From: a virus
IMG/VR virus record: IMGVR_UViG_3300046787_000675
Span: 32,001-96,000 of that record
Direction: 5' to 3' (one strand)
DNA length: 64,000 bases
Shown: in pieces, positions 3,071-34,538 of the stretch
Position numbering within the stretch: the stretch's first letter is position 1
How the letters are laid out: each line of letters begins with the position of its first letter
Notes under the pieces: generated by a model
The model's input: only the letters and a program-made list of their open reading frames with translations
Database searches by the model: none
Told to the model about the DNA's origin: nothing
Made by a program: the position numbers and the translations under genes

Positions 3071-3500
3071 TAAGGTTGTTACATAGTAGAGATAGCATCC
3101 GCGCTATTTCTACCGACATGTACTCACCTTGTTAAGTACACAGCTAAGGTTTTTTATGGGTCATATAGAGGATACCTGTAAAACCCCTACTAGAAAGTCT
3201 TTCGCGCCTTCTTTCGCGCCCCCTTGGGGGAACTGTGGTACACATGAGCCTGTACCAAGCCCCGGGGAAACTAGTGATCCTTCACTAGAGACTGATGTCC
3301 CGGAATTTTTCATTTGTATCCCGCCCCGCTTTGCGGTCGGCGGATAATTACTGTTTCATAATTTCGCTCCTTATTAAAGACGGGCTTATGAAACCCTACT
3401 GAATTTATATACTTCTACTCACCCACTGTAGTAAATAGAAGGGGCTACAAGTTCAGTTACTACTTGTAGCCCTATTCAAAGATAACTATGCGCTATCTCA
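3070..3500 (-). ncRNA. Candidate structured noncoding RNA or long leader
   Basis: No convincing minus-strand CDS. At least 8 hairpins, e.g. 3236-3257, 3271-3288, 3320-3344, 3412-3441, 3442-3472, 3480-3498. Confidence 0.45.
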
Positions 3501-3525
3501 TTATATTATGACCGTTTTTACCTAA
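3500..3525 (-). promoter_or_regulatory. Putative promoter (-10 TATAAT at 3505-3500)
   Basis: CATAATATAAT immediately upstream of the hairpin cluster; no canonical -35. Confidence 0.35.
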
Positions 3526-3803
3526 AAATTAAGGCTATATAATCCTGTTACTTTAGGAGTATTATAGCCCCTAGTAAGCAGGTTAGAAAAAACGATAAAA
3601 CACAAAATAACTGATAGTTATCGAGTTTTTTATTTAGAGATGCAATATCGTTTTTATTGACTTCATAATTAGTTTTAATATCTGTCAACCGATAATCTAT
3701 ATCGTTTCTATGATCTATATTTAACCGAAGGTCTCTTTGGATGCCTTCAGAAACTGTCTTGATTTTATCTATATTTTTATGAAGCTTCTTTAAATTTTTT
3801 TTC

Positions 3804-4274
3804 TTATTTTTCATCGTCTACCTCTACGGCATTATACAATAGAGAAACTGTATTTTCAAACGCTGTTCGAAGAAGCGTGTCGCTTATTACGAAAGGATAT
3901 ACCACTCCTGTACGTGCTTTGCCAGCCATAACACCGTCCACAATAAAATCCAGTATATCAATAAGATGTATATCTTCCGGTATACCATCCTCTGCTGTTA
4001 AATGGTGCCTGTTTACTTTCCTATGGTTATCCCACCAGGTAGTGTTCTTAAAGCCCCCGACGAAATCTCTATGGAAACCGTCGATGTCCGAGAACTTGTC
4101 ATGATCATGGTGTTTAACCTGTTCATCAATCAGCTCTTTAAAGAAGTCAAACCCTTTACGGATATCCCCTACATGCTGCTCAGAGCTTTTTAACAGTTGT
4201 TCTTTCGTTACCTTTGTGTAATCGCAGCTTCGTGTGTCAGCTGTCTCGCTTTTGCGAATTGTTATTTTTTTCAT
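3804..4274 (-). CDS. His/Asp-rich HD-like phage protein (DUF5662-like)
   Basis: H...HHDHDK...HRKVNRHH...D motif pattern. Confidence 0.45.
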   Translation of the reverse strand: MKKITIRKSETADTRSCDYTKVTKEQLLKSSEQHVGDIRKGFDFFKELIDEQVKHHDHDKFSDIDGFHRDFVGGFKNTTWWDNHRKVNRHHLTAEDGIPEDIHLIDILDFIVDGVMAGKARTGVVYPFVISDTLLRTAFENTVSLLYNAVEVDDEK

Positions 4275-5218
4275 ATTTTACCTTTTTTGAAATATTCCCA
4301 CAATGGCTGAGGAAATTTAACATTACTTTTTATAAGCTTTGCCACTTCATCGTTGCCATTAACTAATGACTGGGCTATTATATTTTCTGCCAGCTTTTTA
4401 GAGGCTTTACAGTTTACTGTTGAATCACAAATAGGTGTATACCAGAACAGGTATGAATCTCCTAACTTTATGAAATTTATACATCTTATTACACTTTTTG
4501 GATTTTCTAAACGAACAAATGCTACACAGCCCGAATAACTACAAGATACCTTGGTATTATACTGGGCAAAAGGATTTAGCTCTTCTACTATACTTTTTGC
4601 AATATCACCTGATTTTGTTCCTATTTCCAGTTTTTGAAGCTCTGTATCTTCTTTCTTCTTAACTACTGACTCATATATTTCTTTTAAGCTCATACTTTTA
4701 TCTTTTCCTTATTCTTTAAACCATTTATGGAAACCGCATAGTTCCCAATTAACCGGTTCTATCTCTTTTGCGAATTTTATTACTCGAATCTTATTAACGG
4801 ATCTAACTATAGACTGCCAAATAGTTTCATTATCGTAGTCGTATACTACCTGCAAGGCAATACATATACCAGAGTAGAAAGATATTTCCGATGGTGCATA
4901 AGGTAGTTCTTTATCTTGCTCATTCATATCCTCGTCTGACATGCCTATTAGACTGTATTTATCATCTTCAGCCATAATCTACTCCTTTTTCTTTTTTGTC
5001 AGTATTTTCATTTTATTTCCTTTTCCTGTTGTTTAATACCATCCTGTTAGTAGCAATGGCATCCCTCGCATGTTCCAGAGTAGAGATCAGACACTTATCT
5101 TCGGGAGATAAGTCGCCGGCTTTCTGCAGCTTCTCTATTTCCTCTGTGTAGTAGTATATCTGCCTGTTCATCTGCTCCAGCTCCTTTGCATGCTGTTCGC
5201 GTGTCAGAGCATTGTTGC

Positions 5219-5638
5219 TCATTGCTTATCTTCCTTTGCTTTCAGGTTGTTTATCAGTTTAAACCACTCTGCGTCATCCCCTCTTCTCAGTCCTTGTTTA
5301 TCGATACCGTTATACATATCGTTATACAGACGGGTAAGCCCTGTAACCGGTCCGTTTAATCTCTGTACGAGTACGTATATAATTCTTACGTTGTCTGCAC
5401 GTATGGCGTCTATAAGCTCAAGCTTATTACACCATTCAGTGCCCATGTCGCGAGGGTACAGGTGCTTAGATATATCACAGTTCAGGGTCTTTGCCATAAT
5501 AGATCCTGCTATACATACATGACACTTGTCTCCTTCAACTATATGGAATGCGTCCGGGTCGAAGATATATCTACTGTCCTGCTTCACGAGCATCATATCT
5601 CTATAGGCTGTCTCCAGGAGTTCAATTAATTCTTTCAT
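5219..5638 (-). CDS. Hypothetical protein, paralog of 6416-6826
   Basis: Shared LIELLETA-RDM-LVK-D--YIFD--AFH---G-KCHVC-AG-IMAKTL. Confidence 0.75.
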   Translation of the reverse strand: MKELIELLETAYRDMMLVKQDSRYIFDPDAFHIVEGDKCHVCIAGSIMAKTLNCDISKHLYPRDMGTEWCNKLELIDAIRADNVRIIYVLVQRLNGPVTGLTRLYNDMYNGIDKQGLRRGDDAEWFKLINNLKAKEDKQ

Positions 5639-10830: not shown

Positions 10831-12640
10831 CTACTTCCTGCTTGTTGTTATTTTGTCTAGTCTGCTTTGTAGTCGCTCAGCAATAGCATCTAGATAAGGT
10901 TTATTATCTTCACATTCCATTCCAATGGAAGCCTCAGCTACATCTTCTTTATCTAACCATCCACCGGCCTCCTTACAGAGGACAGTGCCGTCTTCATAGT
11001 AGAAAAGATGGTCACCTACAAGGAAAGTACCGTCGTCACTTTCCTTGGTTACTATTTTTGCTGCTGTTAGCATACATTTACTAGTTCTTTATGTATTTTT
11101 TTGCACAAGGTTGTCGTCTTACGTATCTCTTCCTTAAGTGATTTACCCTTATCTTGTAAATTCTTCTTAAGACACTTCAGCATCTTCCTGCGGATGCTTC
11201 CTGTGCCTATACTCTGATTTAAAGTAAAGAAGTACACAGTCTGTGTTGTAGCCGATACGCTTGTTTTATCGACCTCATTTATTTTTATAATAGGGCAGCC
11301 ATTATATGCGGAAGTAAAGAAAGATCCCTCTTCGTAGACCTCTATTATGTCCATTGACAATTTAAGATCTATGTCTAGTTTAAATCTATGTAATGCTTTT
11401 TTCATTTTGATTTCCTTGTAATTAACTCTTGTATCTTTTCGGACACGTCTTTGTGCATACCTTGTTTAAGCTCTAAAGCAAGTATTCGCAGAGCACAGTT
11501 ATGAAGTTTTTTCTCGAGTTTTTTAATTCGGCTCTTGGTTTTCATTGTCTTACTTTTTGTATATTCTGTGGATCGTATACTCGTATCCTTGACAGTCGGT
11601 TATCATATAAGGTGTTTTAATTTTACCTTCAAATAACCCTTCCTGTTCTAAGGCTTCTGCAAGGGCAAAGTCCGAGATAGACATATCCTCGCCTACTAGG
11701 TCATCGGCATAATTTCTTGTATATCGGACTCCGTAGGATTCAATATCTAACATTATATCGAAGTAACGTATCCCCAGTTTACGGGTGTCCGGGGGATTGC
11801 TATTGCGTATCTTCTCAAGTATTCTCGCGTCTAATTGTCTATTGAGTATGAAAAGCCTAATTGTAAATACTACAAATATAAGGACGCTCATTATCGATAC
11901 GGTAAGGGATATTAATGTGAGTGTAGTCATTTTATTCCTTTGTGCTGTCTGCACGTTTTAGTTTTGCTAGTTCTTCGAAGGTAGCTCTTCGAGATCTTTA
12001 GCGCGTTTTTCTTATAGTATTCGCGCTTACGTTTTCTCGCCTCCTCGTTATGAATACGGTAGTGTTCGCGCCGTTTTGTATTCCGCTCTATACGGCGCTC
12101 TTCAGGAGTTTTTTTATCCATATAAATTATTTATCGGTTATTTTGTTTCTGTAGGGAAGTCTATATAATGTTCGGAGTCTTCTTGAGCACATCCTTCAAC
12201 ACCGCATATACCGCTTCCGATATATTCAGATATAGTCGCTTCTTCTAATTGTTCCTCGTGTTTAGTTAAACATTTATCACATATCTGACTCCGAGTACCT
12301 TCGTCACCTACGGTAACATCATCAAATGTAACACCGTTAAACGCGTATACAGCTTTGTGTTCGACTCTCCTTCTCCTTTCCTGCTCGCGGATTTCACTTA
12401 GTGTTTCCTTCGCGATGTCTCCCTCTAGTATCATTTTATATAACATAAACCATTCCTTATTGTTTAAGGACTCCGGCTTATCTCTGAGAAGTCTGCTTTC
12501 GTCATTATCGTATACATCCTCCCCGTCGATAAGTCTTTGTAGTATATCGATATCTGTTATTGTAGAGCATGAATAATACTTTGTATAATTTTTCTCTATT
12601 GTGTTATTTATTTCTGTGTCCATAGTCTCTCCTTATGGTT

Positions 12641-12886
12641 TTATTTTCTAATTTGTTGTTTATAATATTGCCATTTCTGGGCTTCCCGGATTTTAAGTTC
12701 TCTCCTGCTGTCTACTTTTTCACTTCCAGGCAGTTCCGGGGCTTTCTTTACGATATTCATCTTCAGGTAGGACTTATGGGCGTGTATAGGGTATTTAAAC
12801 TCTATAAGCCCTGCATGATCCGGGATATCTCCCAGAGATACTAATCCCTCTGGAACACAGAAATAGAAATGCTTTAGTTTAGACTT
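12641..12886 (-). pseudogene. Start-less C-terminal fragment of an MmcB-like (PD-(D/E)xK) phage nuclease
   Basis: 81 open codons KSKLKHFYFCVPEGLVSLGDIPDHAGLIEF...KKAPEL..., beginning exactly at the IS right end. Confidence 0.6.
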
Positions 12887-12900
12887 CCGATCACTTTTTA

Positions 12901-14493
12901 TTAATTGTTATTAACAATGCATGCTCGCATTTCTGCGAACAAGGGCTGATCTGCCAACGCACGTAGGAAAATCCCACGCGCTCCATTTATATCTCGGCAC
13001 ATACTCTGTCCGAGACTCTTGATGGTCTTACGACCACCTAGATTTTGGATAACTTCTCCTGTCCAACTAGCGGTTTTACTTGTGTATGCTTCGCATTGTC
13101 TTATTATTATTTTTCCTGCCTCGTTAGCTTTACTTAAAAGCTTTTGAGAGAACTTGTAGTGGGATAAGGTAAGCATTTGACGTACTGACTTTTTGCGTAG
13201 CTTACGAGCAGCTTTACAAACCATATTACTTACTTCGAAAGGAGGTAGGATTATAACATCAAAGTTATTAACAAGCATAGCTACAGCTTTGTTGTGTAGT
13301 TCGGCTATTAAGTCTTTGATTTTCCAACGCATCCTATCTGCAGCTTTCTTAAGCCTATATCGTTGCTTAGCTGTACATTTAGTTTGTCGACTTATCAAGT
13401 CGTCTAAATAAATACACAATCTTGTTATTCTGCTCATAGCGCCTGAACCTATTTTAAAAACACCTGCAGGAGAGTAGCCTGTTAAGAATGTTCGTACACC
13501 TGGATCAAGAGCTACAATCCTACCTTGGTTTTCGGCAGGTACTGTAGTTACTTGTTCCGGTATACAGACAAACCATCTACCTTGTTGGTAAATAAGTCTG
13601 CTGTCCATAGGGGAATTTGGAATAGCTTCAGAATAGCGCAATACGCCTGACAATCTTTGATAAATACCTTTATCGCTTATCGCGCTCTTAGGGATGTAAC
13701 AAGAGTGTACAGGCTCTTTCTTACTTTTAAATTTAGGTACTTGGGGTACCCCTGTCTGCTTAGTAGTCATACGGCATTTAACAAGGCAAGAGTGCGCTTC
13801 TTTTACAGCTATAGACTTTATTTGATATGGTATTTCTTTCGACCATACAGGAGCGTCTTTGAAAAGAATATTTCTAAGATCCATCCAAGACACTCTTTCT
13901 GCAGGGTTTTTGTTTAACCAATCTAAAGCTAAGTTGTAGAAGAAACGGAAAGAACCTAGCCATTTCTTAAAGGCTATTTTCGTCTCTTTCAACGGATAGA
14001 TTCGTATCTTTCTCGATTTTGTTAGCGTACTTCCCAAATCGTGCGAAGCTGCTGGAGAAGTATTGTGATAATTCATTAACGTTTGTTGTGAGTTCTTCTT
14101 TGGAGCTAAAGCGGTGGTCATTGAGAACCACGATTTCTCCGCCGTTCTTCCTAACCATGGACTCAATGAGGTCAAATCCAAGTCTAACAAGTCGGTCTTT
14201 ACTGGTAACCACAAGCGTGAGCTTATCTCCCTGCATAAGTCGTTCCAGTAAGGCTTGAAGTCCTTTTCTTTTGAAGTTAAGAGCACTTCCGGTGTCTTCG
14301 ATGACTTCAGCGTTTGGGTACAGCTGTCTAAGTTGCGCGGTTTGTCGGACGAGGTCGTCCTTTTGTTCCGGCGAGTGGACTCTGCAGTAAAGGACGATAG
14401 AACTGTCTGCTTGTCCTCGAATGTACGATTTGACATCGTACAATCGCTGACCTGCTTCATTTTTGACTGTTCTAATCTTTCCTTCATCTGCAT
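12901..14493 (-). CDS. tnpB: TnpB with rearranged RuvC (pro-Fanzor/Fanzor2-like); start uncertain
   Basis: ALDPGVRTF (RuvC-I); IILPPF (Pro at the canonical Glu site); CEAYTSKT (alternative Glu); RDINGARGI (RuvC-III). Confidence 0.88.
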   Translation of the reverse strand: MQMKERLEQSKMKQVSDCTMSNRTFEDKQTVLSSFTAESTRRNKRTTSSDKPRNLDSCTQTLKSSKTPEVLLTSKEKDFKPYWNDLCREISSRLWLPVKTDLLDLDLTSLSPWLGRTAEKSWFSMTTALAPKKNSQQTLMNYHNTSPAASHDLGSTLTKSRKIRIYPLKETKIAFKKWLGSFRFFYNLALDWLNKNPAERVSWMDLRNILFKDAPVWSKEIPYQIKSIAVKEAHSCLVKCRMTTKQTGVPQVPKFKSKKEPVHSCYIPKSAISDKGIYQRLSGVLRYSEAIPNSPMDSRLIYQQGRWFVCIPEQVTTVPAENQGRIVALDPGVRTFLTGYSPAGVFKIGSGAMSRITRLCIYLDDLISRQTKCTAKQRYRLKKAADRMRWKIKDLIAELHNKAVAMLVNNFDVIILPPFEVSNMVCKAARKLRKKSVRQMLTLSHYKFSQKLLSKANEAGKIIIRQCEAYTSKTASWTGEVIQNLGGRKTIKSLGQSMCRDINGARGIFLRALADQPLFAEMRACIVNNN

Positions 14494-14557
14494 ACTTCCT
14501 TAATGTGTTAGGATGCATTCCTAATTCTTTACTCGCCTTTCTACTTGGTAGTAACAT
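13967..14557 (-). CDS. tnpA: IS607 TnpA serine recombinase with MerR-type HTH; catalytic motif reads YCRVHS
   Basis: LGMHPNTLRKYADEG...GQRLY, DTGSALNFKRKGL, KDRLVRLGF; GGAGG RBS. Confidence 0.9.
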   Translation of the reverse strand: MLLPSRKASKELGMHPNTLRKYADEGKIRTVKNEAGQRLYDVKSYIRGQADSSIVLYCRVHSPEQKDDLVRQTAQLRQLYPNAEVIEDTGSALNFKRKGLQALLERLMQGDKLTLVVTSKDRLVRLGFDLIESMVRKNGGEIVVLNDHRFSSKEELTTNVNELSQYFSSSFARFGKYANKIEKDTNLSVERDENSL

Positions 14558-14637
14558 TATTACCTCCTTTCAATAGGTTACTTAATAGTAACATAGTAAA
14601 TGTTAATTTCAAGTAGTATTTGTTAATAAAAAATCAT

Positions 14638-15300
14638 TTAGTTAAAATCCTCTTCCTGCGGGACATACTTTTTCTTATCGCTGTCGTAGCACATGGTAAA
14701 AGTTATATCGAGAGCTACAGGTATTTTTAGTATAGACACGACTTTGTCTATTACATCATCGTCCAATACAACACATCCCTGATCTTCATAATAGGTCTGG
14801 TGTTTTATAAACATATCCCATTCCGCTCTAGGTACCTTAGGGATAGGGTGGTTTCTATTCCCATAAACACTTTCGTACTCATAAGAGGTCATAAGTCTTG
14901 TATTTAATTTATGCAATCTGCGAATCTCCGGATATGCGCCTACATCTGTATCTAGTGTTAAGATCATACCTTCAGACTTCCAGGTTATACCTATGCGATG
15001 TTTATTTTTTTCCTTACTTCTATTTTTATAGAATACGCTTATTTGATATACGAACTTTTTACCGGATTGGTTTATCTGAGTAGTACCGTCAGTAGGAAAT
15101 ACCTCAAGGGCTTTTGCCAGCTGCTCCCTTGTAGCAGATGCTATATAGGTATTATGTCCGTACCCTCCTGTAGACTCAATACCGGTCTTATCGTAGATAA
15201 GTTTCTCCTCCGTGGCTACGCGTATATCTTCTTTATACTTCTTTTCCAAACGTACCAAGGCTTCTGCGTGTTCCTCGTGTACCTGTTGTATTGTTTTCAT
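14638..15300 (-). CDS. Hypothetical protein; its last codons may derive from the IS left end
   Basis: 220-aa ORF with AAGGA RBS. Confidence 0.65.
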   Translation of the reverse strand: MKTIQQVHEEHAEALVRLEKKYKEDIRVATEEKLIYDKTGIESTGGYGHNTYIASATREQLAKALEVFPTDGTTQINQSGKKFVYQISVFYKNRSKEKNKHRIGITWKSEGMILTLDTDVGAYPEIRRLHKLNTRLMTSYEYESVYGNRNHPIPKVPRAEWDMFIKHQTYYEDQGCVVLDDDVIDKVVSILKIPVALDITFTMCYDSDKKKYVPQEEDFN

Positions 15301-15979
15301 AATTTTCCTTTGTTATTCTTATTATTTAGAACTACGGCCTGTACATGGGAATTTATACTGACATCATTTATACTATCTCTTACGTTGTCCAGTGCTGCTA
15401 TAGATACACCTACAGGTAAATTTGCTGAATTAAGATATAATGTTAAATGTTCAACAGCTTTATCTACTGTTAGGTCTACGCTTCTCATATTTTTCCTTTT
15501 TTGTTATATTTGTTTACTTATTATTGCGACTAAGGAGGATTTGTATACGGGGGATGTTTTACATAAATCTCCCGCTGCTTTAGCTAGAGATTGTTCCAGA
15601 CTTAAGACCTTAGCTTCTTTAATATTTGTTATACAGAATGAGTCGTTTCCCTTATATCCTCCAATATCATAGATCTTGAAGGACGGAATACTTTGGTGTA
15701 AATAGATGAGCCTATTTTCTTATTTATTATACACATATAGAAGTACTATGCACGATATTAACCCGACTATCTATCACAGGTGCCTTGACTTTTTCGCTAA
15801 CAGAATACCATGGTTTATCAGTCACTTTGTGATATACTAACTCGCTCGATAGTTTTCTTACATTAAAACCCCCAGACTCTTCTATTCTCTCTGATATGTT
15901 ATTCATGTATGACCTCTTCTGCTTCAGACGATGTATCTTTGCATATTTTAGAGAGGGTCGTTAAAAGTTAAAATATCAG

Positions 15980-16007
15980 TTGACATTTGTTGATTCCTAT
16001 TTATATT
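15980..16007 (+). promoter_or_regulatory. sigma70-like promoter of IS607 element 2
   Basis: TTGACA-N16-TATATT upstream of GAGG RBS and tnpA. Confidence 0.6.
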
Positions 16008-16036
16008 CGTTGTATGGTTAAAACAACGAGGTTTAT

Positions 16037-16609
16037 ATGTTTTTAAAAAAGTGGGCTAAACAGCAACAAATAAGCTACTGGACAGCCCTTAGGTGGTTTC
16101 ATTCTGGTAAGTTACCTGTTAAAGCTATCCAAACTGAAACAGGGTCTATTTTAGTAATTGAAGAGTCTTCTGCACCGTTATCTAATTGTGTAGGAGTACA
16201 CCTGTACGCTAGGGTAAGTAGTCACGACCAAAAACAAGATCTCAATAGACAGCTACAGAGGTTGCGTGACTACTGCGCTTCTAGAGGTTTTAATATACTT
16301 AGTGAAACAGCTGAAATTGGTTCAGGGTTAAACTCTGAACGCAAAGGTCTGGCTAAGATTCTTAAAAAAGAAGCTGGGGATATTGTCGTCGAACATAGAG
16401 ATAGACTTGCACGCTTCGGTGTCCCTTACATAGAAGAGGCGCTGTCTGCTAGACATAGAAAACTTGTAGTTATCAATGAGACTGAAAGTTCTCAAGAACT
16501 TGTACAAGACTTTATTGATATTGTCACATGTATGTGTGCTCGAATCTATGGAAAACGATCTGCCTCTAATAAAGCTAAAAAAGCTTTAGCAGCCACTCAA
16601 CAGGATTAA
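16037..16609 (+). CDS. tnpA: IS607 TnpA serine recombinase
   Basis: N-terminal HTH, YARVSS, EIGSGLN, EHRDRLARFG. Confidence 0.95.
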   Translation: MFLKKWAKQQQISYWTALRWFHSGKLPVKAIQTETGSILVIEESSAPLSNCVGVHLYARVSSHDQKQDLNRQLQRLRDYCASRGFNILSETAEIGSGLNSERKGLAKILKKEAGDIVVEHRDRLARFGVPYIEEALSARHRKLVVINETESSQELVQDFIDIVTCMCARIYGKRSASNKAKKALAATQQD

Positions 16610-16610
16610 T

Positions 16611-17684
16611 ATGAAAAGGTCTAGTAAATGCTCTATTAAGTTTACTACTAAGAGTAAACAACACAAGCTTTCTCTTATTTTAGACGAATATGCCCGTGTA
16701 GTAAATTCATTTATAGACCTCTTTTGGACATCCTGCCCAAGTAAGGCTGCCCTTTTAAAACCTGTTGTAGACTCTGTTAATTCTTATTTTTCCGCACGTC
16801 TTAGAAAAGTAGCTGCTCGCGAAGCTATAGATATGGTAGTAGCCATGAAGCAACGAGGCGGGAATAAACCTGTACATACAGGTAAACGTATGTGCCTTTC
16901 CGAAACAATTGCAAACTACAAACCTTCGAAAGCAAAGCATTTCGAAGGTTGGATAGAGTTGCGGTGTATAGGTGCTAAAATAGCTATTGACCTTCCTATA
17001 AAGCTGCACAAACACTTTAATAAGTTACATGCTTCGATGGATTTATGTAAATCCATCGTACTTACGCCTACCTACGCGATGTTCTCTTTTTCTAAAGAAA
17101 TAGAGTACCCTGCGGTTGTGTCTGCACCTCTAGCTATAGACTCCGGAATAAAAGCTCTTGCTTCGTGTTCGGACAACACCCAACTAGGTGCCGATATAGA
17201 AACATACATTAAAAGAGTTAGACGTTGTAAACAGAACTCTAGAGGGCAGCAAACTGCTCGAAGAGCCTTAAAACAACGAATAGACGAAGTAGCTAAACAA
17301 GTTTTACAGAAGGGCGCTGATGTTGTCATCGTAGAAAACTTAAAGAACATAACAAAAAACACTAAAGTCAAACGACGCTTGACTAAAAATATGCGTTGCG
17401 TTCTCGGTACTTGGAACCTGAGATATTGGTTAAGCAGATTAGAACAGCGCTGCGAATCGAACCGTGTTCGATTCGTTAGCGTTCCTGCTTACTACACATC
17501 TCAGAAATGTTCTAAGTGCGGTCACACCGAGAAGAGAAACAGGCAACAAGAAATATTCCGATGCTGTGTCTGTGATTACACAGCTAACGCTGACGTGCAA
17601 GCGTCTATGAATATTTTAGGTCTGTTTCTTGCCGGCACCTACGGTTCCGGCTGCAAAGACAAGTTTGCTATAAAAGTAAACTGA
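16611..17684 (+). CDS. tnpB: TnpB RNA-guided nuclease (canonical D-E-D, zinc ribbon)
   Basis: AIDSG, VIVENL, YTSQKCSKCG...CCVC, NADVQASMNI. Confidence 0.92.
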   Translation: MKRSSKCSIKFTTKSKQHKLSLILDEYARVVNSFIDLFWTSCPSKAALLKPVVDSVNSYFSARLRKVAAREAIDMVVAMKQRGGNKPVHTGKRMCLSETIANYKPSKAKHFEGWIELRCIGAKIAIDLPIKLHKHFNKLHASMDLCKSIVLTPTYAMFSFSKEIEYPAVVSAPLAIDSGIKALASCSDNTQLGADIETYIKRVRRCKQNSRGQQTARRALKQRIDEVAKQVLQKGADVVIVENLKNITKNTKVKRRLTKNMRCVLGTWNLRYWLSRLEQRCESNRVRFVSVPAYYTSQKCSKCGHTEKRNRQQEIFRCCVCDYTANADVQASMNILGLFLAGTYGSGCKDKFAIKVN

Positions 17685-20600
17685 TTGTCAACGGTTAACC
17701 TTATCTGTTACACCCTTCGTAACTATATCCTCTACACTCTGGGGTATTTTTTCTAAAAAACGACACCACTTGTTCTCCTTCTCTAAAATACGGTTCCACA
17801 CTATTTCATTGACGTTGCGCATATTTATTACCTCGTTTTGTTTATTATGTATGTTTCAGTACTTTATATTTCTTTAAGATTGAAAAAAGAGTTGTCTGGT
17901 TTTATAAAGTATGTCGAGAGACCTCACACATACTTCTCGATATACTAACATGTGTGTACTTGTATGAACTTCCTGGGATACTACCTTAGATTTTTCTGTG
18001 CTTAAAGGTGTACGCAATCCTTCCCAGATTTCCGTAGCTATCTTTTCATTAATATTATCCATTAGCTTTCTCTATTATCGTTTAAATTCATTACGACATC
18101 TGTAATCTGTAGATGTATGGTGTTTATAGGTATTTCCGTGAAATGGTTACGACCTACCAGATATAATGTATTCTGGTGTATCTGTTCCTCGAATATTTTA
18201 TCTATAGGCTTTCGTATATAATCCCTCACTGTGTTAAAGGGAATAACATCTATGTTTTGCAAGTAGTATTACCTCATGGATGTAGGGTGTTATGATCTTT
18301 GTAGTATGATTTTTGACGGTACATATGTTATGTATTACTTCTCGCATCATCGGATGCTTCTCTATTGATCTTCTTATGTCGACTACAGTTGTTACAACCT
18401 TGGATGAAACGTTAGTCATACTTTCGCTACCTCTTCCATAAACCCTCCGCTGTTGCTGTAGCGATATCATCTATTCCTCCTATCTCGGTGTCGCGTAAAC
18501 CGTGTCTGACATACAGATTTACATCTATATTGACGGATTCCCTTACTTGAGGATATAATTTAAATTCCATTATATCCTCTATTGTAGTTGTCACTTTTTT
18601 ATCGACTTTTCTCATAGGTTATAGTTTATCCTAGCTACCAATCCTTCATCCTCACCGTCTATTACACTCCACGTATTGTCCATTGTAAAAAAGTATACAT
18701 AGTCACTTACATCTTCTTTTAGACTTATTATTTCCTCAAATCTTTTTGTCATTACTTTACCTATAATTTTTGTTACGTTTTTCATAGTTTATCCTTCTGT
18801 ATCCCCTCGCGAGTGTCCATAACCACCCTGCTCTTAAGACCGTGTGTCACCGCCAGGTACTCGGTAAAGATATATACCGGTAATATTTTAGGTATAGTGT
18901 GTTTTAATTCATTGAGGGGTACTTGCGGGCTTTCTTTTATTAGCTTTTGTATATTTTTCATATTCAGATATTTTTTTCAATGTTAAGGGCATTACCCACA
19001 AACCTGTCTACCTTGTTTTTTTTGGCTAAATAGTTCGGTATATGTTTTCATAGGGACAGTAACCGTGCTTGTAATTGAACCTCTAAGGTCGTAACAACTT
19101 ACGGTACATATCTGTTCATGAGTCCTCCTGCGCATAATACCCTCATATTTGTATGTTTCGAAGTCTTCCCGGTCATTTCTGTTTACCAGATTTAAGGGAT
19201 CTAGAGGAGCCGTCTCTATAGATAGTCTCGTTAGGTACCTTAATCTATTTTTAATATTACCGTTTACATTAATCATAAACCATCTCACCTAATGTCTGTA
19301 GATAGGATCTTATTATCGCGTGTTCTTTATTGGAAGTAACTGTGTTTTTTACGATAAATACTACGTTAGCAATATCCAAACTCGTAGACACTTTCTCATT
19401 GCCGAGGCTTATAATACAATACTGCGTATTGCGGTATATAGGTTCGCAAGGTGGGTAAGGTTTATATATATTTAAATCATAACCATTGCCGGAACCGTCA
19501 TTAAATTCTACAGATATTTTAAATCGCTTATGTATTTCGTTTTGTACGGTGTTTTTTATGTTTTTCATAGCATTGTCCTTTCTAAACGGAGTCTATATCC
19601 TATAGATATCTTTATTATCTCTTGTAGTATAGAGTTCTGTACTTTGTTTCTAATGTCCGATACTTTTATAACATCATCCATATACATCATTACATTCTGC
19701 TCACCTTGAGGTGTATAAAAAACGTAGATTTCTCTATCTATTTCTTGTTTTCCGCTTCTGTACGATGGTGATGTTAGATCAATCACCGTTGTCAATACGA
19801 AACACTTTTGTAGTTTTTCTAATACTTTATCGCTTGTGTTTTTCAAGATATATTCCTTATACAGGAGGTTTCTTAGTATATATGTTTTCCGATAAGCTGA
19901 ATTTGTAGCTGTCTACAGTATCCCATATAGCGTCGCTCACGGTAGACCTTGTCTTTTCTGATACAGAGTTCTCCAAGTCTATCTTGACCTGTTTAAGGAG
20001 TCCTTTAAATATTGTATTGAATACTATTCTGTTGTTGTTTTTCATATGTCCTTACCTAAAAAAAAGGGAACTTTCTTCTTTTTATAAAAAGAGAATTCGG
20101 TGTTTGGTAGTCAGTGTGGGGAGGTAGCTTCAAACATGTATCTACCCTGTGTGCGATGTTTATTCGGAGGTTTATCTCTATCTCTTTAGATAAAGAGTTT
20201 ATGACCCCACATATGATTTTATGATGATAGAGTTTGTAAGCTACGATATCATGTACAGTTCGCATATTTATCATTCCTTTATTATTACTTCTTTTAGATC
20301 TCCTTTATTACTACGTTGGATATGCTTGTAGCCTTATTGTATTTGTTGACTTTATCCCTAACATCCCAGTGTATACTGTGCCATGCTGTACTCAGCGACA
20401 CTTTCTCATCGCCGCAGCTTATAATACAATACTGAGTATTTAACTGCTCATTAAAGTCTACAGATATTTTAAATCGCTTATGTATTTCGTAGTGTACAGT
20501 GTTTTTTATGTTTTTCATATCATTGTCCTTTCTATACCTTTAGATGTTCCTATAGGTAAAGTTCTAGGTGTTTTTTCGTGTACGGCTGTCTGTACCTCGC

Positions 20601-33408: not shown

Positions 33409-33520
33409 CCTTCTTTGTGTACTTTTGTACAGTTTTTAAGTTCCTGCTTCGTCCCTTTGCTAACGCAAAGATCCACAGGCTCTTCCGGTTAAGCCAACCG
33501 GGATAAGTTTATAGCTGCAT
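33409..33520 (-). ncRNA. Putative omega/reRNA scaffold of the solo TnpB
   Basis: After the stop: CCTGTGGA-CTTTGC/GCAAAG hairpin-GAAGCAGGAA...AAAGAAGG, a typical TnpB right-end layout. Boundaries approximate. Confidence 0.55.
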
Positions 33521-34538
33521 TCAGGTCTCTATTAATTGAAAGACTGCAGCTTGTACATTTATATGTACGCTCGGAAAGTAGTAGCACATCTTTGATGTTC
33601 CCGCAACCCGAGCAAGTTTTACTGCTTGGGTAGAAACGAGGTGCTTCTACAACTTTCCTGCACTTGTATAATAACTGACGCTTAAACTCGTAGAATCCGC
33701 AATCGGAGATTGCTCTGGATAACCTAGAGTTTTTAAGCATATTCGATACACCTAAAGTTTCTACAACTACAGTGCCGTGGTTTTTGGCTATTGTAGTGGT
33801 AGCTTTATGTATGTTATCGTTGCGTACGCAACTTATTTTGTAATAAAGTTTACGTAACTTAGTTACAGATTTAACCCAGTTCTTAGAACCTTTAAGTTTC
33901 CGGGACATAGCCTTTTGTAGTCTATGCAGCCTTTGGAGGTTAGTCTTAAGCGGTTTAGGGTTAGGTACTTCTGTTTTGTCTGATAGGACAGCTAAAGACT
34001 TAATTCCTAAGTCGATTCCTACAGTTCCTGTAGTAGCTCTTGTATCTTCTATTTCTGTTTGTACGGAAATAGAAAGAAACCATTTATCTCCTTTTCGAGA
34101 AACTGTACCAGACTGGATTTTACCTTCGAAACGAAGGGATTCTGTCATTTTAACTTTACCTATTACAGGTAGCCGAACCTCCTTCCCATTTATAGAAAAC
34201 TTATCGTTGCTTACATAGAAGCTATCTCTCTGCCCTTTCTTCTTAAAAGAAGGGAAAGCAGAGAGCTTGCTAAAGAACTTAGAAAAAGACGCTTTAAGGT
34301 TTGTAAAGGGCTGCTGATTTGCATCTTTAGGAGACTCGTACACCCATTCTGGTTTACTCGCATTCCATTGCTTTTTAAGGGCGTCGATGTTAGGTTTCTC
34401 TCCTTTATCTAAAGCTTCTTTATAACAGGCTAACGCCCAGTTGTAAGTAAACCGAGCAGTACCGCAAGCTTTTGCAAAAGCTTGCTTTTGCTCTGCTGTA
34501 GGTTTAAGTTGGATTAAGTGTGCTCGGTTTAAGTTCAT
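33489..34538 (-). CDS. tnpB: Solo TnpB (no adjacent transposase)
   Basis: CGTARFTYNWAL, GIDLGI, VVETL, SSKTCSGCG...CTSC, RDLNAAINL. Confidence 0.93.
   Translation of the reverse strand: MNLNRAHLIQLKPTAEQKQAFAKACGTARFTYNWALACYKEALDKGEKPNIDALKKQWNASKPEWVYESPKDANQQPFTNLKASFSKFFSKLSAFPSFKKKGQRDSFYVSNDKFSINGKEVRLPVIGKVKMTESLRFEGKIQSGTVSRKGDKWFLSISVQTEIEDTRATTGTVGIDLGIKSLAVLSDKTEVPNPKPLKTNLQRLHRLQKAMSRKLKGSKNWVKSVTKLRKLYYKISCVRNDNIHKATTTIAKNHGTVVVETLGVSNMLKNSRLSRAISDCGFYEFKRQLLYKCRKVVEAPRFYPSSKTCSGCGNIKDVLLLSERTYKCTSCSLSINRDLNAAINLSRLA

Follow-up and report, generated by a model that had tools for sequence, protein, structure and literature searches.

The stretch of DNA analysed here (the window, 64,000 nucleotides) comprises bases 32001–96000 of the 160.7 kb IMG/VR virus record IMGVR_UViG_3300046787_000675, which CheckV rates as 84% complete, and it contains an insertion element of the IS607 family that encodes a serine recombinase, TnpA, and a TnpB protein. 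We consider it likely that this is a phage IS607 insertion in which tnpA is accompanied by the gene for a 530 amino acid (AA), zinc-finger-less TnpB of the DPG/alternative-Glu lineage, the lineage that contains Fanzor2, that the N-terminal arm of this TnpB is read from the +1 frame of tnpA, and that the protein acts in RNA-guided homing. Unless noted otherwise, the features described lie on the minus strand and their positions are those of the window.

Catalytic residues of TnpB and the lost zinc finger

The tnpB open reading frame (ORF) occupies 12901–14493 and, judged by the position of the ATG in relatives, its start is likely the ATG at 14493 or the one at 14487 (+64 or +70 nt from the start of tnpA). 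Its product matches PF07282 (37.8 bits, cutoff 26.3) and PF12323 (27.8 bits, cutoff 21) and contains the sequences VALDPGVRTF, DVIILPPFEVSNM and RQCEAYTSKTASWTGEVIQNLGGRKTIKSLGQSMCRDINGARGI; P417 lies in IILPPF, E468 in CEAYTSKT and D501 in CRDINGARGI. Three alignments were used, the first (A1) of the target protein with 18 relatives and the two canonical TnpBs that are also encoded in the window, the others (A2 and A3) with 25 and 40 relatives of 30–66% identity. The RuvC-I residues D330, P331 and G332 (13498–13506), the alternative catalytic Glu E468 (13090–13092) and the RuvC-III Asp D501 (12991–12993, in the motif RDxNGARGI) are invariant in A2 and A3, and P417 (13243–13245) and F419 are invariant or nearly so. 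P417 occupies the canonical RuvC-II Glu position, where it stands opposite the Glu of a canonical TnpB of the window (VVVETL) in A1 and opposite G416 of ApmFz2. The latter protein, mimivirus L79 (structure 9B0L), is the sole match in a PDB sequence search with the target protein alone (E = 1.4e-19), and it pairs its D324 with D330, its E467 with E468 and its D501 with D501. These three ApmFz2 residues are its published catalytic triad, and D324A and E467A served as catalytic-dead mutants (PMC11832414, PMC10530073). The D330-E468-D501 triad of the target is intact, and the four motifs that a previous sequence-only reading of this DNA had singled out (DPG, Pro at the canonical RuvC-II Glu, the alternative Glu and RDxNGARGI) are borne out by their near-invariance in relatives and by this pairing.

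The segment in which a TnpB zinc finger would be expected, residues 475–499 (ASWTG...KSLGQSMC, 12997–13071), has lost all four Cys ligands, its former CxxC positions now reading A475-S-W-T478 and K492-S-L494-G, and there is no CxxC anywhere in the 530 AA protein, which agrees with the earlier statement that the CxxC pairs are replaced. E468 is followed by AYTSKT and then by position 475, so the alternative Glu lies six residues ahead of the first zinc-finger Cys position. The Trp of SWTG within the remnant is near-invariant across the group, and a protein 95% identical to the target (P0001) has the same catalytic and zinc-finger-remnant motifs. On these features the protein is a member of the TnpB/Cas12 superfamily, with a WED-REC-RuvC arrangement and a split RuvC D-E-D triad, that is devoid of the C4 zinc finger, a usual but not universal part of that superfamily.

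A Glu (E420, in PPFE) is present three residues past the canonical RuvC-II position, so the protein might instead be a canonical TnpB in which E420 acts as the RuvC-II Glu or whose motifs have been misaligned. This we find scarcely credible. E420 is not a rival catalytic residue because close relatives carry Lys (P0002) or Asp (P0017) there, and E468 is invariant; the protein alone matches only ApmFz2 in PDB; a profile of the long forms matches L79 at E = 3.6e-54 versus 1.5e-14 for ISDra2 TnpB; and both phylogenetic trees described below part the target from the window's two canonical TnpBs.

An N-terminal arm overprinted on tnpA

Pfam and NCBIfam homology begins near residue 158 of TnpB, and the frame remains open for 157 codons further upstream, over tnpA. 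The 527 nt at 13967–14493 are thus dual-coding, the N-terminal arm of TnpB being the +1 frame of tnpA. In nearly every relative the tnpB frame likewise extends 140–180 codons upstream in this frame. Between codon 51 and the end of 81 distinct tnpA genes (12,288 codons) the +1 frame contains 8 stops, as opposed to 716 for the +2 frame, and 78 of the 81 genes keep the +1 frame open over 400 nt or more; the tnpA of the window's second IS607 element, which served as a control, has 6 and 22, respectively. The first in-frame ATG is at +64, +70 or +73 in 54 of 80 relatives, and the arm has the conserved motifs KSSKTS..STS.EK..PYWND.C.EISS.LWLPT.TD....KTVEKSWFST. In a codon alignment of 27 distinct loci the third positions of the tnpA codons that lie under the S-W-F of the arm are invariant though the TnpA residues there vary (Ile 59%, Val 74%, Val 96%), and third positions are likewise invariant at the Pro, Trp and Leu columns of the arm. 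The stop counts and the codon alignment together indicate that the +1 frame of tnpA is under selection. A literature search on Fanzor and IS607, including IS607 with overprinting, found no mention of the tnpA overlap.

The invariant S-W-F is residues 121–123, upstream of the internal Met125 and Met140, and translation must therefore start inside tnpA, so that the 530 AA ORF at 12901–14493 given by the sequence-only reading is right. A short TnpB of about 391–406 AA, begun at Met140 or Met125, would leave the upstream 125–140 codons untranslated and open for some tnpA-level reason. It would suit the onset of family homology at residue ~158, some database gene calls of 375–391 AA and the predicted disorder of residues 1–78, but we think it very unlikely, as the S-W-F and the conserved PYWND..LWLPT both precede the two Mets, the third positions of tnpA are frozen there, stops are depleted in the +1 frame relative to the +2 frame, an ATG is conserved at +64 to +73, and the superposition of the model on ApmFz2 (below) begins at residue 79.

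A tnpA with a +1-frame ORF was also seen in the giant-virus metagenome-assembled genome (MAG) GVMAG-S-1017244-26 (locus L050, 3286–5224), where that frame reads EPFW..LWPTETD..HSWFKT..RKIRLFPT and matches the arm profile with an hhalign probability of 98.7% (E = 4.2e-16). The Fanzor2-like gene of this locus is split between an ORF at 3368–4189, which holds the arm and the start of the core in +1 overlap with tnpA, and an ORF at 4217–5224 with the rest; an intron, a frameshift or an assembly error may be the cause. Two further giant-virus loci, L047 and L048, were candidates for having kept an arm of ~140 AA without tnpA, and were dropped since hhalign finds only ~54 residues before the core, the remainder being REC insertions.

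Predicted fold and the Fanzor2 N-terminal domain

An AlphaFold2 model built on 40 long forms has a mean predicted local distance difference test score (pLDDT) of 76.3 and a predicted template modelling score of 0.70. Residues 1–78 are a disordered leader (pLDDT < 50) rich in Ser, Thr and Lys, residues 79–102 and 117–133 have pLDDT values of ~78–86, the core (155–519) is mostly above 85, and the former zinc-finger segment is still folded (87–91). The structured part of the arm, residues 79–133 (14095–14259), includes PYWNDLCREISSRLWLP, the SWF and a strand at 125–129, and by the model, its VIA-align superposition and the profile alignment it is the predicted counterpart of the Fanzor2 N-terminal domain.

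The top Foldseek match of the model is chain 9b0l_P (E = 7.2e-22). VIA-align superimposes model residues 79–518 on residues 53–518 of this chain (Z = 25.6, 408 residues), these ranges being the first and last aligned residues only. ISDra2 TnpB is level with it in score (Z = 25.5) but over 337 residues, and the VIA-align matches of ISDra2 TnpB, ISFba1 TnpB and Cas12f start at model residue ~155, apart from a few low-ranked rows at 114–153. In ApmFz2 the resolved part of the N-terminal domain (residues 53–130, RuvC-R plus thumb) begins at chain residue 53; Schargel et al. described this domain as unseen in other TnpB structures. The alignment of the long-form profile with L79 begins at KTVEkSWF of the arm, which is placed on EIETNSWY at L79 residue 78, inside RuvC-R.

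We lean towards the view, held with some reserve, that the N-terminal domain of Fanzor2 arose not in eukaryotes but in bacterial IS607 elements, as some 175 codons overprinted on the +1 frame of tnpA, and that hundreds of elements of bacteria and phages, and at least some of giant viruses, still encode it in this way. The nuclear localisation signal of Fanzor2 would then have had the leader, already basic and disordered, to draw on. The large zinc-finger-less clade would further show that TnpB can do without its zinc finger in nature.

Relatives and phylogeny

A word-indexed search gave 4,533 matches at E ≤ 1e-5 among 8,000 candidates scored, those with names including cyanobacteria, Chromatiales and Competibacteraceae. 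An exhaustive search of 50%-identity representatives found 883 clusters at E ≤ 1e-30, and a search of one genome per species found at least 536 loci, often several copies per genome; Cyanobacteriota, Poribacteria, Latescibacteria, Chloroflexota, Bacteroidota, Synergistales, Chromatiales and Thiomargarita are among the matches listed. Of the 55 related loci in IMG/VR most belong to phage contigs, the longest of 312 kb, and a few to giant-virus MAGs. The closest relatives all are without the zinc finger, and DPG/alternative-Glu proteins that carry it appear from 35–44% identity. The target is thus no rarity; it is one ordinary member of a very large zinc-finger-less group of bacteria and phages, which is represented on about 50 IMG/VR contigs.

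A phylogeny had been named as a check on the sequence-only reading, and trees from FastTree (199 rows) and from a quick IQ-TREE search (LG+C20, 69 rows), with the window's two canonical TnpBs as the only outgroup, both separate the target from those two. The zinc-finger-less sequences form one clade of 121 rows inside a zinc-finger-bearing grade in the former (support 96) and a single clade in the latter (SH-aLRT 99). Loss of the zinc finger in a single event is not demonstrated by this, since three changes of zinc-finger state are needed in a tree from which the zinc-finger columns are removed, though one change may still suffice. L047 and part of L050, the two sequences sampled from giant viruses, are placed among the zinc-finger-bearing lineages, with long branches and weak support. 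The target accordingly belongs to the Fanzor2/pro-Fanzor lineage, on a derived branch. Of the earlier claim of a phage-borne nuclease close to the Fanzor2 ancestor, the phage location and the shared lineage with Fanzor2 stand, and "close to the ancestor" is overstated, because the sampled giant-virus sequences group with zinc-finger-bearing relatives; the zinc-finger-less group seems no closer to that ancestor than other members of the lineage.

Near-identical zinc-finger-less IS607 copies with differing flanks were found on several phage contigs of IMG/VR (L020, L021, L032, L022, L023 and L027), and such copies also occur within single genomes. Their presence in different flanks suggests recent movement within or between phages.

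Element ends, predicted guide and reRNA

About 99 distinct related loci have right ends with two TGTTAGC-type repeats, an A-run and xTCGG (usually TATCGG), the layout common to most of them being TGTTAGC-N4-TGTTAGC-AAAAAG-TATCGG, and sister copies diverge from the next base on. The corresponding terminus of the window's element (12887–12916) has two TGTTAAT/CAATTAAT-type repeats, an A-run and GATCGG; it reads TGTTAATAACAATTAATAAAAAGTGATCGG, and its last base, 12887, is 14 nt past the tnpB stop. The next 20 nt, AAGTCTAAACTAAAGCATTT (12867–12886), are phage flank, and the flanks of sister copies are unrelated from here on. By analogy with ISXfa1 and ApmFz2 they are the predicted guide, and they coincide exactly with the guide (12886–12867) proposed by the sequence-only reading. 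A right-end element RNA (reRNA, or omega RNA) in the GC-richer 277-nt intergenic stretch 12624–12886, which would have made that guide an error, was a candidate that the ~99 right ends reversed, this stretch being phage flank.

Multi-copy relatives have left flanks with AAGG, AGGG, GAGG or GGGG as their last bases, mostly RGG, which supports the earlier expectation of a transposon-adjacent motif (TAM) ending in GG. The left flank in the window is ..GAAGAGG, with its GG at 14650–14649, and the AGG at 14649–14651 would be the TAM of the rebuilt pre-insertion site. The base before GG is always C at the right end and A or G in left flanks, which leads us to infer that the TAM is RGG and that the donor junction is thereby spared.

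The predicted reRNA scaffold is the 3' end of tnpB plus the 14 nt beyond it (12887–13096). These 210 nt fold with a minimum free energy (MFE) of -70.8 kcal/mol (z = -5.82; none of 200 shuffles was as good), and three stems recur across loci, namely a hairpin over the ARGIFLRA codons, a GGN-AGAT-NCC stem and a sequence-variable hairpin. Per-sequence folding places a hairpin of at least 5 bp after GGNAGATNNNCC in ~80% of 95 loci, with a sequence that differs between loci, and L020 and L022 show compensating changes in the variable hairpin. In a MAFFT alignment the variable hairpin is misaligned through indels, and RNAalifold recovered only 3 pairs from it, so that folding was done sequence by sequence instead. 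A simple upstream search for the complement of xTCGG as a pseudoknot partner found nothing.

A single-copy stretch (12640–12866) with a GC content above that of its surroundings adjoins the guide on its downstream side and precedes the next phage gene. Its structure is moderate (MFE -56.1, z = -2.39) and includes a 9-bp CCAGAGGGA/UCUCUGGG hairpin. It has no Rfam match and is phage flank, outside the insertion element.

The element, its TnpA and a possible decay

The whole element is ~1762 bp (12887–14648), from GATCGG at the right end to the base after ..GAAGAGG at the left, each boundary being ambiguous by 2 nt owing to the GG crossover dinucleotide. Its tnpA (13967–14557) encodes an IS607 serine recombinase of 196 AA with an N-terminal MerR-type helix-turn-helix and a resolvase domain (NF033518, 133.9 bits, cutoff 110; PF00239, E = 3.6e-16; PF00376), and lies upstream of tnpB on the same strand, an order that fits IS607. 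The left end (14558–14648) has TTAACA/TTACT-type subterminal repeats and the tnpA ribosome-binding site. In keeping with IS607 ends, there are no terminal inverted repeats, subterminal direct repeats of the TTAAC type are found at both ends, and GG is present at both junctions. When the flanks are rejoined they read ..CAG GAA GAG GAA GTC TAA and the upstream phage ORF stays open, with its stop 8 nt further on; the element therefore occupies the last codons of phage ORF 14638–15300, whose C-terminus is changed by the insertion from EEEV to EEDFN. A search for relatives of this phage gene and a megablast against phage records gave nothing.

The TnpA of the target copy has YCRVHS in place of YxRVSS, a His codon (CAC, 14375–14377) standing in column 61 of the TnpA alignment, where 26 of 27 distinct relatives have Ser and the window's protein is the exception. 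The Ser after RV is the resolvase nucleophile in serine recombinases. The YxRVSS Ser of a catalytically competent IS607 TnpA is thus missing here, so that this copy is probably unable to move itself and is probably stranded. The sequence-only reading mentions neither this substitution nor the 527-nt overlap with tnpA.

Several observations weigh against the interpretation favoured above. TnpB scores 99.9 bits against NF040570, 0.1 below its cutoff of 100. In the AlphaFold2 model residues 103–116 and 134–153, the latter equivalent to the thumb, are of low confidence, and an arm-only profile has no match in PDB at E values up to 10, so that homology of the arm with ApmFz2 rests on the contiguous alignment, the fold superposition and the L050 match; that match in turn may be partly inflated because both frames overlie homologous tnpA genes (32% identity). 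Exact-pattern scans of IMG/VR and of the metagenome collection found neither an empty site nor a second copy of the exact element. Lastly, zinc-finger loss together with loss of the TnpA nucleophile could mean a decaying copy. In that case the element would be a relic that can no longer move, and its TnpB would either have lost activity or serve the phage in the manner of TldR, binding DNA or repressing under RNA guidance and not cutting; repeated exaptation of TnpB is documented in published work. We nevertheless think this improbable, though it is the most serious of the alternatives: the loss of the zinc finger is shared by the whole group and so is no damage peculiar to this copy, members of the group are mobile and occur in multiple copies, D330, E468, D501 and all other group-invariant residues are intact in an open frame of 530 codons, the right end is preserved, as is the structured 3' region, and P0001 carries the same motifs.

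If the element is instead an RNA-guided homing system, as we favour, the ~175 N-terminal residues translated from the +1 frame of tnpA would form a disordered leader followed by short structured elements packed on the core in the manner of the Fanzor2 domain. By analogy with ISXfa1, ApmFz2 and the IS607 IStron of Clostridium botulinum (CboIStron), the 3' end of the tnpB transcript with the right end would yield a scaffold of ~210 nt, and the next ~20 nt of flank (12886–12867) would be the guide. The complex may then cut element-free copies of the site that have RGG (here AGG) on the 5' side, recombination restoring the element, and in a phage this could amount to homing into co-infecting relatives, the invariant C of the right-end CGG, as opposed to A or G in left flanks, protecting the donor junction.

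The phage and other elements in the window

Large ORFs of the window match PHROGs for phage DNA polymerase, DnaB-type helicase, SbcC and other replication genes, and the host record is therefore a large phage. The window has three TnpB genes: the target, that of the second IS607 element and a solo IS200/IS605-type tnpB. The second IS607 element (16037–17684, plus strand) has a tnpA with an intact YARVSS and a canonical, zinc-finger-bearing TnpB of 357 AA, which starts 2 nt past the tnpA stop and so is without a long overlap; its left flank, ..TTAGAGAGG, resembles the AGAGG flank of the target element. The solo TnpB (33489–34538; 349 AA; phrog_506, E = 8e-108) has the canonical Glu and a CxxC zinc finger. 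Three Pistol ribozymes (RF02679; 798–861, 1773–1836 and 2666–2729; 64–69 bits, gathering score 34.5) sit between small genes of one phage operon. An Rfam search of 12100–18200 matched no family, neither RAGATH-18 nor a group I intron.

Significance

The interest of these findings lies at the level of the group, in its zinc-finger loss, its broad host range and its arm overprinted on tnpA; the window copy itself is ordinary and probably immobilised. The Fanzor2-related bacterial lineage is wider in taxa and architecture than has been described, with a very large zinc-finger-less clade that extends beyond cyanobacteria and is common in phages. If the proposed origin of the arm is correct, the Fanzor2 N-terminal domain gains a prokaryotic counterpart and a concrete source in overprinting on tnpA. 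At ~530 dual-coding nt, the overlap is long and well conserved by the measure of bacterial mobile elements, and it physically couples the transposase and nuclease genes. For engineering, the group may offer natural, zinc-independent candidate nucleases with a Fanzor-type active site, a type of site reported to be without collateral cleavage (PMC10530073).

Comparison with known systems

By sequence and fold ApmFz2 (L79) is the closest solved relative of the target. Both have an IS607 context, DPG, a non-Glu residue at the canonical RuvC-II site, an RD..N.A motif and an alternative Glu six residues ahead of the first zinc-finger position; both have a disordered N-terminal leader and then a structured N-terminal domain before the WED/REC core, predicted in the case of the arm; and both have a G-rich TAM ending in GG, again predicted here. 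At ~20% identity they differ in that ApmFz2 keeps a C4 zinc finger with bound Zn and the target has none, that the ApmFz2 scaffold reaches ~200 nt past the ORF and the right end of the target is 14 nt past the stop, and that the TAM is GGG there and the predicted one here is RGG. The hosts differ as well, a giant virus of amoebae for ApmFz2 and a phage of bacteria for the target. Fanzor2 proteins are those encoded by a eukaryote or a eukaryotic virus, and the target, in a phage with PHROG replication genes, is not one of them.

The pro-Fanzors, or TnpB2 (Yoon et al. 2023, PMC10711439; Jiang et al. 2023), are, like the target, bacterial IS607 TnpBs with DPG and the alternative Glu; they lie in the same clade in trees and have a GG crossover and a G-rich TAM (predicted for the target). 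In our set an arm overprinted on tnpA is present in zinc-finger-bearing members as well (L026, L028, L031, L036, L040 and L052). Yoon et al. described pro-Fanzors as exclusively cyanobacterial, whereas the zinc-finger-less group is also found in the Poribacteria, Latescibacteria, Chloroflexota, Bacteroidota, Synergistales, Chromatiales, Thiomargarita and phages. Their search pattern demands CxxC-x(12,18)-CxxC, that is, both CxxC pairs, and by that working definition the target is not a pro-Fanzor; the same filter would have screened out the whole zinc-finger-less group. The target has the other pro-Fanzor features, namely DPG, an alternative Glu without the canonical one, and a tree position with Fanzor2 and apart from the canonical-Glu TnpBs. 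The pro-Fanzor label given by the sequence-only reading therefore holds for the signature and the clade but not under the published pattern.

ISXfa1 and CboIStron (PMC10711439; bioRxiv 10.1101/2023.11.20.567912) resemble the target in their serine-recombinase partner, GG-dinucleotide crossover, guide that starts at the right-end flank, and TAM, GGG or TGGG, that overlaps the TnpA target. The reported TAMs are GGG for ISXfa1, as for ApmFz2 (PMC11832414, PMC10530073), and TGGG for CboIStron. Those two systems were tested by experiment, whereas the guide and TAM of the target are predictions, and Rfam detects no group I intron in the target. Finally, Altae-Tran et al. (2023, PMC10691335) reported that zinc fingers have been lost in some large TnpB branches, some of them enriched in viruses. 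Of these, RIIIr-4 parallels the target in that its C4 zinc finger has been lost naturally and its catalytic site is rearranged yet conserved, the rearrangement being in RuvC-III there and in RuvC-II in the target.

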